A DNA stretch of 64,000 nt, from NCBI RefSeq assembly GCF_045037415.1, contig NZ_CP173438.1; one strand, 5' to 3'. How positions within the stretch are numbered: position 1 is the first letter of the stretch; each line of letters starts with the position of its first letter. Under the pieces are notes generated by a model. It was given only the letters and a program-made list of their open reading frames with translations. It made no database searches and was not told the DNA's origin. Positions 22,774-28,461 of the stretch are shown piece by piece. The stretch comes from Escherichia coli. Its GTDB lineage: Bacteria > Pseudomonadota > Gammaproteobacteria > Enterobacterales > Enterobacteriaceae. Made by a program: the position numbers and the translations under genes.

Positions 22774-22987
22774 CGCGCACCTCGTGGCTGATTATGGACG
22801 GCGTTATTGGCAAAGTGGAACAAGACTCACTCCCGGGTCAGCAAACTCGAAAAATTGACGCTCCCATTATTTGTGCTTTCGTTTTTTTCTATCCGCCAAT
22901 AAACCCGTTTTTTTGTTGCTATTTAGCGCCTTTGTCTTATTGACTTACTGGTAGGCTTTGCTATCAGAAATTATCCGGGAGACGAAA

Positions 22988-23302
22988 ATGTCAGCGATAC
23001 AGGGGATTGAAGGGGTTATCAGCCAGTTACAGGCTACGGCGATGAGTGCGCGTGCGCAGGAATCACTGCCGCAACCGACCATTAGTTTTGCCGGGCAGCT
23101 GCACGCCGCGCTCGATCGCATAAGCGATACACAAACAGCCGCCCGCACGCAGGCAGAAAAATTCACCCTCGGTGAACCCGGCGTGGCGCTAAACGATGTG
23201 ATGACCGATATGCAAAAAGCCTCAGTTTCTATGCAAATGGGGATTCAGGTGCGTAATAAGCTGGTGGCGGCGTATCAGGAAGTGATGTCCATGCAGGTGT
23301 AG
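22988..23302 (+). CDS. fliE: Flagellar hook-basal body protein FliE
   Basis: 104 aa starting [18 protein letters not shown]; divergent from fliF. Confidence 0.95.
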
Positions 23303-23645
23303 GTTGTGTAACCTGTTGACTATGCTTGTTTAATTATATCCGATCCCACAGCGTGGGGCATGGATGGGCAAACTCACTCAATTTCTGGTTTAAAATGGAT
23401 ACCTGATCCTGGTTGTTTTCTGCCATCCACGATCCGTAAACGCGATAACATGTTTTGTCTTCGCTTTGCTCCCAGGAAGAGTGAACTCTTTCGTTAGCCT
23501 GGGGTTCCTTCTGATCATTATTGTTCCTGCCTTTATCTCTTGCCACGCCAGAGCCCCCTGGATACACATACACCAGGATGAAAACAGTGAGTTGTGTTCA
23601 AACTGTAGTACAATTCTCTCCAGTATGAACAGGAAAGAATATGCT

Positions 23646-23978
23646 ATGAACCCTTATATTTATCTTGGTGGCGCAATACTTGCAGAGGTCATTGGTACAA
23701 CCTTAATGAAGTTTTCAGAGGGGTTTACACGGTTATGGCCCTCTGTTGGCACAATTATTTGCTATTGTGCATCATTCTGGTTATTAGCTCAGACGCTGGC
23801 TTATATACCTACAGGGATTGCTTATGCTATCTGGTCAGGAGTCGGTATCGTTCTGATTAGTTTGCTTTCCTGGGGATTTTTTGGTCAACGACTGGACCTG
23901 CCAGCTATCATAGGCATGATGTTGATTTGTGCCGGTGTGTTAGTCATTAACTTGTTGTCACGAAGTGCACCGCATTAA
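23646..23978 (+). CDS. emrE: Small multidrug resistance (SMR) efflux protein EmrE
   Basis: 110 aa, four TM helices, MNPYIYLGGAILAEVIGTTLMKFSEGF...; essential Glu in TM1. Confidence 0.9.
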   Translation: MNPYIYLGGAILAEVIGTTLMKFSEGFTRLWPSVGTIICYCASFWLLAQTLAYIPTGIAYAIWSGVGIVLISLLSWGFFGQRLDLPAIIGMMLICAGVLVINLLSRSAPH

Positions 23979-24146
23979 AAAATAATTATCCTTGAGATAA
24001 CAGGAATCTGATTTGTGCATATTATGGCTAATGTTCGGGGCACCTTTATAATTATGATTGCATTTGCGCGATCATTGCGCCTTTATGCATAATGAGATCA
24101 AGGCACATCAAATAAAATAACGATAGGTCACAACAATGAGGTTTTT

Positions 24147-24698
24147 ATGAAAAAACTTATCGTTTCAAGTGTATTGGCATTCATAACATTTTCTGCGCAG
24201 GCCGCAGCATTTCAGGTCACTAGTAATGAAATAAAAACAGGAGAGCAACTTACAACGTCTCATGTATTTTCTGGATTTGGGTGTGAAGGTGGTAATACAT
24301 CGCCCTCATTAACCTGGTCTGGTGCTCCTGAAGGCACCAAAAGCTTTGCCGTAACTGTGTATGATCCAGATGCTCCTACAGGCAGTGGATGGTGGCACTG
24401 GACTGTTGCTAATATTCCAGCAACTGTAACATATTTGCCCGCTGATGCAGGAAGACGTGATGGTACAAAACTTCCGACTGGTGCTGTTCAAGGCCGAAAT
24501 GATTTTGGTTATGCAGGATTTGGTGGAGCATGTCCTCCCAAAGGAGATAAACCCCATCATTACCAGTTTAAAGTATGGGCTCTAAAAACTGATAAAATTC
24601 CTGTGGATTCTAATTCCAGCGGAGCGTTAGTTGGTTATATGCTTAATGCCAATAAAATTGCAACCGCTGAGATAACACCAGTTTATGAGATAAAGTAG
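24147..24698 (+). CDS. ybcL: Periplasmic PEBP/RKIP-family protein YbcL
   Basis: Signal peptide MKKLIVSSVLAFITFSAQA; PEBP-like motifs (DPDAP, GWWHW). Confidence 0.85.
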   Translation: MKKLIVSSVLAFITFSAQAAAFQVTSNEIKTGEQLTTSHVFSGFGCEGGNTSPSLTWSGAPEGTKSFAVTVYDPDAPTGSGWWHWTVANIPATVTYLPADAGRRDGTKLPTGAVQGRNDFGYAGFGGACPPKGDKPHHYQFKVWALKTDKIPVDSNSSGALVGYMLNANKIATAEITPVYEIK

Positions 24699-24707
24699 GG
24701 TAAGAGT

Positions 24708-25505
24708 ATGCTGGCAAAAGATAAGACTAACCTAAAGATTGAAGAAATACGGATGCATAAACATCATGAGATTCACAGGGTTAAGCCTCTTATGCCAGCT
24801 TTATGTCGTATCCGTCAGGGAAAAAAAGTTATCAATTGGGAGACGCATAGTCTAACTGTTGATAATAATCAGATAATATTATTTCCCTGTGGATATGAAT
24901 TTTATATTGCGAATTATCCAGAAGCAGGTCTTTATCTTGCAGAAATGCTTTGTTATCCCATTGATCTAATTGAAAAGTTTCAAAAATTTTATGCGATAAC
25001 TGATCAAATTCGTAACACGACAGGTTTCTGCTTACCTCAGAACCCCGAGTTAATATATTGTTGGGAGCAACTAAAAACATCTATTTCCCGAGGCTTCTCA
25101 ACGCAAATTCAGGAACACTTAGCAATGGGCGTTCTACTTTCATTAGGAGCACATCATGTTAATTGTTTACTTTTATCAGATAGTAAACAATCATTAATAA
25201 GTCGTTGTTATAACCTAATGCTATCCGAACCTGGAACAAAATGGACAGCAAACAAGGTAGCGAGATATCTCTACATTTCTGTTTCCACATTGCATCGCCG
25301 TCTGGCAAGCGAGGGAGTAAGTTTTCAAAGTATATTGGACGACGTGAGGTTAAATAATGCGTTGTCTGCTATACAAACGACAGTAAAACCCATCAGCGAG
25401 ATTGCCAGGGAAAATGGTTACAAGTGTCCTTCTCGTTTTACTGAAAGGTTCCATAATCGTTTTAAGATAACACCAAGAGAGCTAAGAAAAGCGTCCAGAG
25501 AGTAA
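24708..25505 (+). CDS. ybcM: AraC-family transcriptional regulator YbcM
   Basis: C-terminal AraC-type HTH; follows ybcL as in the DLP12 prophage. Confidence 0.8.
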
Positions 25506-25829
25506 AAGTATTTTATGAAGGAGCAACAGCATCGATTTTTATTTTGGAAAATAAATACGGCATACTCAACCTATTGGAGTCTGAACAATCCGGTGACTTC
25601 TGCGCTAATCGGGGACGTTTCTAAGCACATATAATTGATACTATCTTCCTCCATCACAATTTCAGAAATGCACGTGTGATTTTTTTGCATCCGGCGTTTG
25701 GACTATGTGGAGCTCAAGAGTGGGAAAGTTACAAGAGGTTGAGGGGATAATTAAAGGGATGCTTATGACATTAGATATCCGGTTAGGTACGGATATCGTT
25801 GTTATTAAATCTAGTTGATACGTTAAGAT

Positions 25830-26186
25830 GCAGCTACTGACAAAATAGCCAGGACTCCACAAAACGCCTTTGTCGTAATACCTGACTGCAATATCTGGTC
25901 GATCTCGTCGCAGTAACCTACTCGATACGCCTTTGAGGCTGTTTACCAGACTGGATATCGCCAGTTTGGGAGGATAGTTAATTAACAAATGGACGTGATC
26001 TGGTCCGCCATCCATTTCAACCCGTTCAGCTTCAAAATCAGCACATACATTTGAAAAGTAAGTGCGTAGTTTTTCTGTCGCGTCATGGTCAAAAATCTGA
26101 CGTCGGTATTTAGTAACGAAGACCAGGTGAACATGCTTCAGGAAAACACAATGCCTTCCGCGTCGGATATCGGTTTCTTTTTTCAT
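25830..26186 (-). pseudogene. tnpA: IS200/IS605 Y1 transposase TnpA, C-terminal region apparently replaced
   Basis: MKKETDIRRGRHCVFLKHVHLVFVTKYRRQIF...HVHLL (HuH motif) ...GYFVSSC; the ORF then continues into unrelated sequence, so the C-terminal catalytic-Tyr region seems missing. Confidence 0.6.
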
Positions 26187-26208
26187 AGGCCAAAGTATGA
26201 TTTGGCCC

Positions 26209-26493
26209 ATGAAACGACTACAGGCATTCAAATTCCGGTTAAGACCAGGTGGTCAACAGGAGCGTGGAATGAGGCGCTTCGCAGGCGCATGTCGTTTCGT
26301 TTTCAATCGTGCTCTGGCGCTTCAGAATGAGAATCATGAGGCCGGTAATAAATACATCCCTTACGGGAAAATGGCTTCCTGGTTGGTTGAGTGGAAAAAT
26401 GCCACTGAAACGCAATGGCTTAAAGATTCGCCCTCACAGCCATTGCAACAGTCACTGAAAGACCCTGAGCGGGCTTACAAAAACTTCTTCCGG
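26209..26493 (+). pseudogene. tnpB: TnpB (IS605 OrfB), N-terminal ~95-aa fragment only
   Basis: MKRLQAFKFRLRPGGQQERGMRRFAGACRFVFNRALA... typical TnpB N-terminus; RuvC-like and Zn-finger regions absent. Confidence 0.65.
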
Positions 26494-26917
26494 CTTCGTC
26501 ACCACGCTCAAACGGTGTGCTACCTATCGCGGCTATAAAAACAGCTTGTCCATCAGCACGATAGATAAAATAAGGCTGCTTTTTGTCGCCTTCTTTTTTC
26601 CACTCAAACCAGCCATCGGCAAAACAGATTGCCCGACCATGTTGCCAGAGCGGTTTAAACATGTGACTGGTTGCGGCAGTTTCTACGCGGGCGTTAATCA
26701 GCGGCGGTTTATCCCACCATCCGGGAGCATATCCCCAGAAAACCGGATCCAGATGAAGGTGTTCATCACGTTCACTGAGCAGAAGGACTTTGGTTCCCGG
26801 CGCGACGTTGTATCTGCCAATAGGTTCGGGATCGTAGGGAATATCGCGTTCAATATCTTCCGCGAGAAACGCGAGGTAATCTTCACGCGTTTGGGATTGG
26901 GCAAAGCGTCCACACAT
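26491..26917 (-). pseudogene. yedK: SRAP-domain protein YedK (abasic-site processing), 3'-truncated at the IS junction
   Basis: N-terminus MCGRFAQSQTREDYLAFLAEDIERDIPYDPEPIGRYNVAPG... with catalytic Cys2; homology ends after about 142 residues, then a short unrelated tail. Confidence 0.7.
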
Positions 26918-27025
26918 AGAAACCTCCTGAGAGCACACTGAAAAGAATAGGAGAGAGGGCGGGTAAAATCTATGTGATAGAGAGGTAACGATGTTCCCGC
27001 TGTGGGCCACAGCGGGAATGAGGGA

Positions 27026-27259
27026 TTACTTCTGAATTAAATAACGAATGGTCGGCCCGTCTTGCTGAATATCCAGCACCGTATAGCCGTGATTACGCGC
27101 ATCCAGTGGAATATTATTGATCGACTGCGGACAGTCGCTCACCACTTCCAGGATCTCCCCTTTTTTTAACTGCGGCATCGCCTCAAGGGTTGCGACTGCC
27201 GGATAAGGGCAGGGTTCACCCACCATATCAAGACGGTAATCAGGAACGATATTTTTCAT
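27026..27259 (-). CDS. yedF: TusA-like sulfurtransferase YedF
   Basis: 77 aa, CPxP motif (GEPCPYP). Confidence 0.9.
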   Translation of the reverse strand: MKNIVPDYRLDMVGEPCPYPAVATLEAMPQLKKGEILEVVSDCPQSINNIPLDARNHGYTVLDIQQDGPTIRYLIQK

Positions 27260-28461
27260 GCGATCTCCTTAGCAGTCTGCGGTGCCGCACGGCGGAAGAA
27301 GCGTTTTTCCCAGCCAATAATCAACATTAGAGCAGCAAACAACAGCAAATATGTCACCAGCAGGCCGCCCATCGGGCCAAAGGTTTTCAGCAGGTTGATT
27401 TTGTCCCAGTCGGTGGCCAGCGCCGGAGCGAAATCATCCCAGTAGTACGCCAGAATCGTTGAGCCGATCACGTTGCCCAGACCGACCCACCAGTAGTGCA
27501 CCTGGCCTTCTACCGCGCGGTACATCCAGCCGGTTTCGCAGCCGCCTGCCAGCACGATGCCAAAACCAAACAGTAAACCACCAATTACCGCGTTTGGTCC
27601 CGCCCACATGATTTTGGGTTCAACGCCTAACTGTACGTAACTGAAGATCCCGATGGCACTTACCGCCATACCGATAATGATTGCTTTCGCCATATGGGTA
27701 CGTCCGGTGATCCACATATCGCGGAACGCCGAAGTAAAGCAGATTTGCGCACGTTCAATCAGTAAACCAAAGCCGACGCCAAACAGCATTGCCAGCCCCA
27801 GTTTGGGCTGGTTCATCGCCGTCAGCAGCGCCCAGCCCAGCATGCCGAAAAAGACCAGCATCCCGAGACGAAAACGACGCCGCGCCTGATCCGGTTTTTG
27901 CGTCAACGGTGAGGCAGCAGAAACTTTCTGCATTTTCACGGGAATACGGAAGATGGGCAGAAGGGTAAAGCGCGCGCCAAACCATGAACCAATGGCAGTG
28001 GCGATGGCAAAGAACCAGGCGTGCAGCGAGAACTGTGGAATTCCGGTAAAGAACGCCGCCAGGTTACAGCCCATTGCCAGACGTGCGCCAAAACCGGCGA
28101 TAATACCGCCAATGATGGCCTGCATAATGCGGATACGGCTGCGCGGCATGCGCAGTTTGACATTGTTGGCCCACAGCGCTGCGGCAAAACAGCCGCCAAA
28201 CATACCGAGGATCATCATTCCGTCGATGCGGGTTAATGGCGATCCTTCCAGATGGATAATTTTAAAATAACCCCACTCTTCAGCATGGACGCCGAACAAC
28301 TGCAGGAGCTGACCGCCCCAACGGGTAAATTCACCCGTGACTGCCCAAAAGGTGCCAGTGATGCCAAAATAGTAAGTGGAGAGAATACCCGCCGCGATGA
28401 CCGCGGGGATGGGCGCCCAGAATTTAATCAACCAGGCGTGTTTGAATTGCTGCCATGACAT
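27256..28461 (-). CDS. yedE: Inner membrane selenium/sulfur-compound transporter YedE
   Basis: 401-aa polytopic membrane protein overlapping yedF. Confidence 0.9.
   Translation of the reverse strand: MSWQQFKHAWLIKFWAPIPAVIAAGILSTYYFGITGTFWAVTGEFTRWGGQLLQLFGVHAEEWGYFKIIHLEGSPLTRIDGMMILGMFGGCFAAALWANNVKLRMPRSRIRIMQAIIGGIIAGFGARLAMGCNLAAFFTGIPQFSLHAWFFAIATAIGSWFGARFTLLPIFRIPVKMQKVSAASPLTQKPDQARRRFRLGMLVFFGMLGWALLTAMNQPKLGLAMLFGVGFGLLIERAQICFTSAFRDMWITGRTHMAKAIIIGMAVSAIGIFSYVQLGVEPKIMWAGPNAVIGGLLFGFGIVLAGGCETGWMYRAVEGQVHYWWVGLGNVIGSTILAYYWDDFAPALATDWDKINLLKTFGPMGGLLVTYLLLFAALMLIIGWEKRFFRRAAPQTAKEIA

Follow-up and report, generated by a model that had tools for sequence, protein, structure and literature searches.

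The emrE–ybcL–ybcM block between fliE and a truncated yedK in Escherichia coli: a probable remnant of a lambda-like prophage

How did emrE, ybcL and ybcM, a trio with counterparts in the defective prophage DLP12, come to stand in the flagellar region of Escherichia coli, and how did the neighbouring yedK lose its 3′ end? The window (the whole stretch of 64,000 nucleotides that was analysed) is by its sequence E. coli ST131-like; positions 22800 to 27500 (4.7 kb) are 100% identical to ST131 genomes, for example JJ1887. After fliE come the three intact genes, then a fragment of the insertion sequence IS609, then the cut yedK (Table 1). The GC content of the island is 40%, against 54% in the flanks. 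The original prediction had described the trio as DLP12-like and had set it beside fliE, next to an IS200/IS605 remnant. RefSeq coordinates agree with that placement for all the elements, nucleotide identity to DLP12 emrE, ybcL and ybcM is 90–92%, and the neighbouring element can be named more exactly as IS609. The arrangement is a common, previously annotated E. coli allele; in the literature searched, no paper on the fliE–yedK locus was found. Two loci served for comparison, L008 for the state with a porin gene (P) and L007 for the state with IS609 and intact yedK (Q), and genome counts were taken over 5426 complete genomes.

Table 1. Features of the fliE–yedK locus in the window
Feature	Position	Strand	Basis or remark
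fliE	22988–23302	+	RefSeq annotation
attL core	23283–23302	+	Final 20 nt of fliE including TAG stop, TGATGTCCATGCAGGTGTAG
attL phage arm and lambdoid integrase 3′-terminal fragment	23303–23449	−	K-12 'intG'-type remnant
Second, more diverged integrase-derived fragment	23445–23554	−	Restricted to emrE-island states
Final 9 nt of ren and ren–emrE spacer	23570–23645	+	DLP12 homology
emrE	23646–23978	+	RefSeq annotation; intact, SMR efflux gene, 110 aa
ybcL	24147–24698	+	RefSeq annotation; intact, periplasmic PEBP/Raf-kinase-inhibitor-like, 183 aa
ybcM	24708–25505	+	RefSeq annotation; intact, AraC-type regulator, 265 aa
Lambdoid nin region start, 3′ of ybcM	25506–25712	+	Continuous with DLP12 homology ending at 25712
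tnpA as annotated	25662–26186	−	RefSeq annotation, 174 aa
Q antiterminator (quuD-like) 3′ end and a few bases more	25722–25826	+	
nmpC-like porin signal-peptide coding remnant, 11 nt	25827–25837	−	Comparison with L008 and L007
IS609 internal fragment	25838–26491	.	Both ends missing; alignment with K-12 and MB20 IS609
Native tnpA part	25838–26186	−	Within IS609 fragment
tnpB-type 'HTH domain' pseudogene	26209–26499	+	RefSeq annotation
tnpB codons 1–94	26209–26491	+	Within IS609 fragment
SRAP pseudogene (yedK)	26492–26917	−	RefSeq annotation, flagged incomplete
yedF	27026–27259	−	RefSeq annotation

The truncated yedK and tnpB meet at 26491/26492, where a deletion of 1111 bp has left 142 of the 222 yedK codons and 94 codons of tnpB. 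A single deletion at about 26491, taking the 3′ end of yedK and all but about 95 codons of tnpB, was what the original prediction had proposed; base-level comparison with strain MB20 (L007), in which tnpB and yedK are intact, located it exactly, and realignment found both genes to be truly truncated. Exact microhomology at the junction amounts to 1 nt and the sequence is a plain fusion of the two flanks. It is not an assembly artefact, because the same junction is present in 1110 complete genomes. A deletion of 668 bp between perfect 8-bp direct repeats (GCAGCTAC, the window's repeat being at 25830–25837) removed the 3′ end of tnpA, the native sequence of which stops at this junction. An older deletion, of 1223 bp, removed the porin gene and has its junction at 25826/25827; L008 has the porin and L007 lacks it with the same junction. 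All deletion junctions were base-mapped against L007 and L008. Loss of the porin via the GCAGCTAC repeat was also considered and was ruled out by base-level inspection.

The surviving 654 bp of IS609 are 94.9–95.6% identical to the K-12 and MB20 copies; of these three, the window's copy has diverged furthest and has 26 substitutions unique to it in 663 nt. The ends of the element and its TTAT target were set from an alignment of the empty site with the K-12 and MB20 copies. In state Q the element runs from CCG, directly after TTAT, to GTCAA; both of these ends are missing from the window. TnpA matches the Y1_Tnp profile over positions 2–106 of 121 and retains the HUH motif (HVH); the catalytic tyrosine of Y1 TnpA proteins lies in the C-terminal segment. 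RefSeq presents the 174-residue TnpA as intact, but it is truncated and fused to a stretch encoded by non-IS sequence. TnpB keeps only its N-terminal HTH_OrfB_IS605 domain (94 of 402 codons), the RuvC-like nuclease and zinc-ribbon parts being gone. In the IS200/IS605 family the guide RNA is encoded in the region lost here; an Rfam scan of L007, which has an intact IS609 and an island at 97.5% identity, returned nothing at E ≤ 0.01, neither an IS609 guide RNA nor any other curated RNA family. Judged from its sequence, the fragment would be immobile, since it has no ends and has lost the TnpA C-terminal segment, the TnpB nuclease part and the guide-RNA region.

The 668-bp and 1111-bp deletions each end inside IS609 on one side, as might be expected had the enzymes of the element made them, by TnpA excision or by TnpB cleavage and repair; the other candidates are slippage during replication and illegitimate recombination. 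TnpB is an RNA-guided nuclease, and the repair of its breaks could in principle leave deletions. We nevertheless regard such an origin as very unlikely. TnpA excision in the IS200/IS605 family is precise at the element ends, whereas here both ends were lost and an internal fragment was left. The TTAT target and the TCAA end coincide with neither junction, and tnpA of the K-12 and MB20 copies carries an internal stop. The perfect 8-bp repeats at the 668-bp deletion are moreover the signature of slipped mispairing.

At the other end of the island, the 20-mer that closes fliE (TGATGTCCATGCAGGTGTAG) recurs unchanged in phage IdasGreatGrand, in its attP region, and the similarity continues through the attP and the 3′ end of int of this phage (23283–23449, 97.6% identity over 167 bp). 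The encoded integrase C-terminus, on the minus strand, begins 25 nt past fliE and reads towards attL. It is a fragment only (44 residues, 86% identical to the IdasGreatGrand integrase C-terminus) and was identified solely by tblastn against phage integrases; it has no Pfam match and no similarity to IntD of DLP12. The second integrase-derived piece, at 23445–23554, matches the interior of the IdasGreatGrand integrase gene at 74% nucleotide identity (E 7e-16). The stretch up to 23449 is common to all states of the locus, and the island states part from K-12 and the minimal states at 23449/23450. Only one copy of the att core, attL, is found in the window. Its partner attR, a 19/20 copy of the core, sits 17 nt from the yedK stop at position 4779 of L008 (P) and 3546 of L007 (Q), and falls within the segment lost by the 668-bp deletion. 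When states P and Q are compared with K-12, homology picks up again exactly past the 20-nt core. An empty attB, searched for with a synthetic fliE-3′/yedK-3′ junction, was not seen; the best matches all fell into two pieces with 617 bp between them, the minimal state with the integrase fragment retained.

Between these borders the window aligns with DLP12 in three blocks, in the same order and with 83–92% identity. The homology begins at 23570 (91.6%), 9 nt ahead of the DLP12 ren stop, and lambda-like phages have the same junction of ren with emrE; sequenced temperate lambdoid phages carry ren–emrE or ybcL–ybcM at matching map positions. Positions 25489–25722 have counterparts in lambdoid phages, phage 82 among them, where they lie upstream of ninB/orf33. 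The Q remnant is 83% identical to the final ~100 nt of DLP12 quuD and 84% identical to the Q genes of phages ev243, 2G7b, ev207 and ev017; in DLP12 itself, 1782 bp (ybcN to the 5′ part of quuD) separate the nin-start and Q blocks. In the porin state the DLP12 homology extends across Q and on into the nmpC-like porin with 85% identity. Genes for replication, lysis or structural proteins were found between fliE and yedK in none of the states examined; the spacer is therefore a remnant and not a prophage. The combined evidence makes it very probable that the fliE–yedK spacer is what later deletions have left of a lambda-like prophage related to DLP12.

The identical order and orientation of the three genes in DLP12 could also suggest that recombination or transposition brought the trio, or a copy of it, into the flagellar region from DLP12 at argU. 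The original prediction spoke of DLP12 cargo; the homology stands, but the block is not relocated DLP12 cargo and belongs to another lambdoid prophage, likewise decayed, which has an attL, an integrase fragment and a Q-gene remnant of its own. Transfer from DLP12 is highly improbable. The block is only 90–92% identical to DLP12, is without the ylcJ–ybcK segment (2083 bp) and has at its borders this separate attL, the Q remnant and an integrase fragment that is not IntD. No DLP12-type copy occurs in ST131 genomes, the records of which have emrE–ybcL–ybcM at one place only (nucleotide search, megablast sensitivity). The block adjoining fliE is, furthermore, found in 2619 genomes.

The decay of a lambda-like prophage can be followed in strains that keep earlier states. 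In addition to the 2619 of 5426 genomes in which emrE adjoins fliE, we counted an uninterrupted porin-upstream/attR/yedK arrangement in 456, IS609 abutting intact yedK in 1103 and the window's yedK/tnpB junction in 1110. These three state counts total 2669, against 2619–2630 island-bearing genomes, so the classes overlap or are imperfectly defined. The window's tnpA junction is present in 1105 of the 5426, the yedK 3′ end (243 bp) is absent from 1173, and yedK is intact in 4250. Sequence comparison orders the states from the porin state (UTI89) through IS609 with intact yedK to the window allele, which is derived and not ancestral, given that some strains still have the sequences deleted here; such strains are what the synteny comparison suggested in the original prediction brought to light. 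That the truncated yedK/tnpB arrangement is instead ancestral and the longer alleles secondary has next to no probability, for although the allele is frequent (1110 of 5426, in flank-identity classes from 100% to about 98.9%), the full tnpB, the IS609 ends and the yedK 3′ end cannot regenerate from the deleted state, 4250 genomes have intact yedK and the junction is a simple two-flank fusion. By its flanks the window is nearest to porin-state strains of B2 (99.3%), yet it shares the porin-deletion junction with a strain of 97.5% identity; with this mismatch a simple vertical order requires old polymorphism or recombination between lineages.

We propose that a prophage integrated into the final 20 nt of fliE, the attL core and the integrase fragment being what remains of that step. 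Internal deletions would then have removed nearly all phage genes, as the collinearity suggests, while accessory genes survived: emrE after ren, ybcL–ybcM before nin and, at first, a porin gene of nmpC type behind Q. The later steps are shown by comparison with strains that keep intermediate states. The porin gene was lost by the 1223-bp deletion, before or after IS609 entered at TTAT within the yedK stop codon, an insertion that made yedK just one codon longer. The 668-bp deletion at the GCAGCTAC repeats took attR, the left end of IS609 and the tnpA 3′ end; before or after it, the 1111-bp deletion took the 3′ part of tnpB, the right end of IS609 and the last 80 yedK codons. In the window only attL survives, and we infer attR, the porin and both IS609 ends from other strains. 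The 668-bp tnpA deletion, the older porin deletion and the prophage nature of the whole spacer were absent from the original prediction.

Past the junction the yedK frame stays open for another 24 codons, read from tnpB in antisense, up to a stop at 26420, which would give a fusion of 166 residues. Its product covers positions 1–138 of 214 of the SRAP profile (Pfam) and aligns with residues 1–143 of solved YedK structures, with about 95% identity over them; compared with PDB 6KCQ, the MCGRF start and Cys2, Asn75 and Glu105 are present. The final 80 residues of YedK are gone, His160 among them, and 24 unrelated residues stand in their place. His160 takes part in YedK catalysis (PMC9436759). Truncated YedK is most likely inactive, since His160 and a third of the fold are lost. 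About one in five of the complete E. coli genomes sequenced carries the yedK/tnpB deletion allele. It is possible, though unlikely, that these carriers, ST131 included, are naturally YedK-null and that their abasic-site damage tolerance or mutation spectrum could change measurably; if so, they would be without an SRAP protein shielding abasic sites in single-stranded DNA. A yedK pseudogene in a large, clinically important group including ST131 is relevant for studies of SRAP/HMCES-type abasic-site protection in E. coli.

EmrE has a full-length four-helix SMR domain (PF00893, positions 2–93 of 93, E 2e-35), and the membrane-embedded Glu14 is seen in the translation MNPYIYLGGAILAEV... The gene of this model multidrug transporter is not specific to DLP12; about half of complete E. 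coli genomes have it in a second decayed prophage, at the fliE stop. YbcM contains an AraC-type HTH (PF12833, E 1.5e-16). YbcL has, behind a signal peptide, the full PEBP domain (PF01161, positions 6–135 of 135, E 2e-42) and is 99% identical to UTI89 YbcL and 97% to that of K-12. Precursor residue 99, which is residue 78 of the mature protein (V78T in literature numbering), is Ala in the window, Thr in UTI89 and Val in K-12. UTI89 YbcL is the suppressor of neutrophil migration studied by Lau and Hunstad (review PMC4810123), and this UPEC protein is encoded at the fliE–yedK locus, not in DLP12. As a weaker variant of the YedK-null idea, the Ala of the window's YbcL could alter the reported neutrophil-suppressing activity of the UPEC protein. 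Understanding of how the EmrE, YbcL, IS609 and YedK systems work is unchanged by these findings.

Among known systems, the islands of UPEC UTI89 and APEC IMT5155 have the same site and the same trio and are 99.3% identical to the window, but there IS609 is absent, yedK is intact and attR is still present, as is the nmpC-like porin under the annotation ompC. The K-12 copy of IS609, between ydcL and ydcO, likewise has divergent tnpA and tnpB, whereas in the window 308 of 402 tnpB codons are missing, together with the 3′ end of tnpA and the two ends of the element. IdasGreatGrand (PP925829), a sequenced temperate lambdoid phage with a complete genome of 47.9 kb as opposed to the remnant here, is the sequenced phage nearest to the one integrated at fliE; beyond attP–integrase, the only similarity found to it is a 186-bp nin-region match at 75% identity. 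DLP12 and the window's remnant share int (−), ren, emrE, ybcL, ybcM, the nin region, Q and an nmpC-type porin (−) in the same order and orientation, and both are defective prophages retaining accessory genes. DLP12, however, sits at argU (tRNA-Arg) and not at the fliE 3′ end, and its integrase is unrelated to the window's. The window lacks ylcJ–ybcK, the nin genes and the lysis genes and is far more reduced, with about 2.5 kb of prophage-derived sequence; its porin and attR are also gone.

Many ST131 chromosomes, those of JJ1887 and O25b:H4 strains among them, match window positions 22800-27500 at 100% identity. Gene coordinates were transferred from the JJ1887 RefSeq annotation to window positions (table), and both RefSeq and Pfam concur with the coordinates and gene calls of the original prediction. 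The Pfam matches are full length for EmrE, YbcL and YbcM. The TnpA match ends at profile position 106 of 121, the N-terminal HTH domain alone remains of TnpB, and 138 of 214 SRAP positions are covered in YedK. Judged by sequence, emrE, ybcL and ybcM are intact and, at megablast sensitivity, single-copy in ST131.

Features of the fliE–yedK locus in window coordinates, with annotation source or DNA identity to the K-12 prophage DLP12
Feature	Position	Strand	Source or identity
fliE	22988-23302	+	RefSeq (JJ1887)
emrE	23646-23978	+	RefSeq (JJ1887)
ybcL	24147-24698	+	RefSeq (JJ1887)
ybcM	24708-25505	+	RefSeq (JJ1887)
tnpA	25662-26186	-	RefSeq (JJ1887)
tnpB-type pseudogene	26209-26499	+	RefSeq (JJ1887)
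SRAP pseudogene	26492-26917	-	RefSeq (JJ1887)
yedF	27026-27259	-	RefSeq (JJ1887)
ren 3′ end + emrE	23570-23987		91.6% to DLP12
ybcL–ybcM + nin region start	23992-25712		89.7% to DLP12
quuD 3′ end	25722-25820		83% to DLP12

The emrE–ybcL–ybcM block (the island) is collinear with DLP12, a cryptic lambdoid prophage. In state P (UTI89, IMT5155), where the island comes with an nmpC-like porin and yedK is intact, DLP12 homology runs on at 85-88% through the sequence that follows Q and into the porin. DLP12 differs in having 1782 bp (ybcN to quuD) that the fliE island is without and, between emrE and ybcL, a further 2083 bp holding ylcJ and ybcK, a serine recombinase gene (K-12 locus L012, 8758-10840), where the window has 4 nt only (23988-23991). 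Either ren–emrE or ybcL–ybcM also occurs at matching positions in sequenced temperate lambdoid phages. The GC content is 40% in the island and 54% in its flanks. We considered a displaced piece of DLP12 and rejected it: the integrase described below is unrelated to IntD, the identity is only about 90%, and no DLP12-type copy turned up in ST131 genomes by nucleotide search.

Directly downstream of fliE lies a minus-strand fragment, annotated "integrase" by RefSeq in the minimal and MB20 states, with 86% protein identity to the integrase C-terminus of the temperate lambdoid Escherichia phage IdasGreatGrand; positions 23283-23449 share 97.6% DNA identity with the attP-int 3′ region of this phage. 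Because the phage-shared sequence extends into fliE, we assign the final 20 nt of the gene (TGATGTCCATGCAGGTGTAG) as the putative attachment core. A 19/20 copy sits at a distance of 17 nt from the stop codon of yedK in state P and in the state with IS609 and intact yedK (state Q; MB20), and in K-12-type alleles homology to state P picks up exactly past the core. A search of complete genomes found no unoccupied site and the integrase fragment is common to nearly all genomes, so the initial integration event probably happened long ago. The fliE site may have been used repeatedly. We note that an 11-nt stretch, ACTATGCTTGT (23319-23329, phage arm of attL), is present in the window and IdasGreatGrand and absent from K-12, minimal-state and MB20 alleles, which hints at lineages with scars of different integration events, or at segment exchange.

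MB20 (L002/L007) carries the same island with intact yedK and a full-length tnpB bearing an internal stop. Base-level comparison places the yedK/tnpB junction at 26491/26492 (slashes mark breakpoints): the window reads ...CTTACAAAAACTTCTTCC/GGCTTCGTCACC..., MB20 tnpB ...CTTCTTCC/AGAATC... and the MB20 yedK strand ...AAAAATCCTTC/GGCTTCGTC..., bearing out the predicted truncation of both genes at one junction. The microhomology is 1 nt exact, within an imperfect 11/13 match. The 1111-bp deletion cost IS609 870 bp and yedK its final 243 nt (80 codons and the stop), leaving 94 codons of tnpB and 142 of yedK. The identical junction recurs in 1110 of 5426 complete genomes, and the yedK 3′ end is absent in 1173 and in no genome present twice. 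The deletion is therefore real, and neither a rearrangement nor an assembly error.

Two further losses had been overlooked. The repeat GCAGCTAC occurs once in the window (25830-25837) and twice in MB20, 668 bp apart; deletion between the copies took the IS609 left end and the tnpA 3′ end, and this junction is found in 1105 of the 5426 genomes. The annotated "intact" 174-aa transposase WP_001347174.1 is thus a TnpA cut short at the C-terminus and continued by about 55 unrelated residues that the Q-remnant region encodes. Just left of the repeat, a 1223-bp deletion of the porin gene has its scar at 25826/25827, and 11 nt of signal-peptide coding region are all that remain of the gene there. The scar is also present in MB20, and the porin, lost earlier than the 668 bp, is kept in UTI89 and APEC IMT5155 (RefSeq name ompC). 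A 19-20-bp unit of the Q-remnant region, GTTGTTATTAAATCTAGTT, is present three times in MB20 (L007 2960-3020) and once in the window (25795-25816) and IMT5155.

In state Q, IS609 (boundaries TTAT/CCG...GTCAA/) is inserted within the yedK stop codon (T/CA), adding one Cys codon. The window fragment is without ends, its TnpA keeps the HUH motif but has unrelated sequence in place of the C-terminal segment, and its TnpB is without the nuclease part, so mobility is not expected. With 26 substitutions of its own over 663 nt, the fragment has diverged further than either of the other two copies in the comparison. At the right end the MB20 copy (L007 5200-5231) is about 98 bp shorter than the K-12 copy (L015 2580-2700), apparently by deletion between GTGGAG repeats; many IS609-at-yedK strains have the longer form, where a 200-bp query extends over 300 bp. 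ST131 chromosomes hold a further IS609 tnpB copy, annotated insQ, outside the window region (e.g. NZ_CP107147.1 near 2410544), hence the second genomic "place" for window queries.

Four kinds of spacer are found among complete genomes: minimal, with an integrase fragment only; K-12-like, with yedL and a DUF5503/effector-like pseudogene; state P; and the island with IS609. Among the 5426 genomes emrE is contiguous with fliE in 2619, and the three-gene block itself is unbroken in 2630; the P-type right junction occurs in 456, the Q junction in 1103, the window-type junction in 1110 and the minimal state in about 822, all being fractions of a database that over-samples clinical lineages such as ST131, not of the species. 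"Place" counts vary with the tool's joining rules, and the P, Q and window-type counts together slightly exceed the island total. Since deletions are irreversible, the alleles order as P to Q to window state, with porin deletion and IS609 insertion, and likewise the 668-bp and 1111-bp deletions, in either order. B2 porin-state strains are the closest to the window in its flanks (99.3%), but its porin-deletion scar is shared with a 97.5%-identical strain; old polymorphism or inter-lineage recombination must therefore be involved.

The truncated YedK keeps Cys2, Asn75 and Glu105; His160, which contributes roughly tenfold to cross-linking rates (PMC9436759), is missing with 36% of the protein. 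Without its C-terminal third the protein probably no longer folds.

The well-studied YbcL of UTI89 is encoded at the same locus as the window copy. Across the YbcL copies compared, codon 99 (24441-24443) is the sole position with three variants: the window and MB20 have Ala, UTI89 has Thr and K-12 DLP12 has Val. With a signal peptide of 21 aa it would be residue 78 of the mature protein, and a V78T difference is reported to decide whether YbcL suppresses neutrophil migration.

The facts of the original prediction on this locus were right. The oddity it implied, prophage cargo "in the flagellar region", vanishes: the whole spacer is the scar of a prophage, and nearly every E. coli carries it in one form or another. 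Our literature search found no paper that treats the locus as what is left of a prophage with its attachment site in fliE. All components are of known kinds, annotated already in hundreds of RefSeq genomes, both pseudogenes included, and our reading draws them together neatly but describes no new kind of system.
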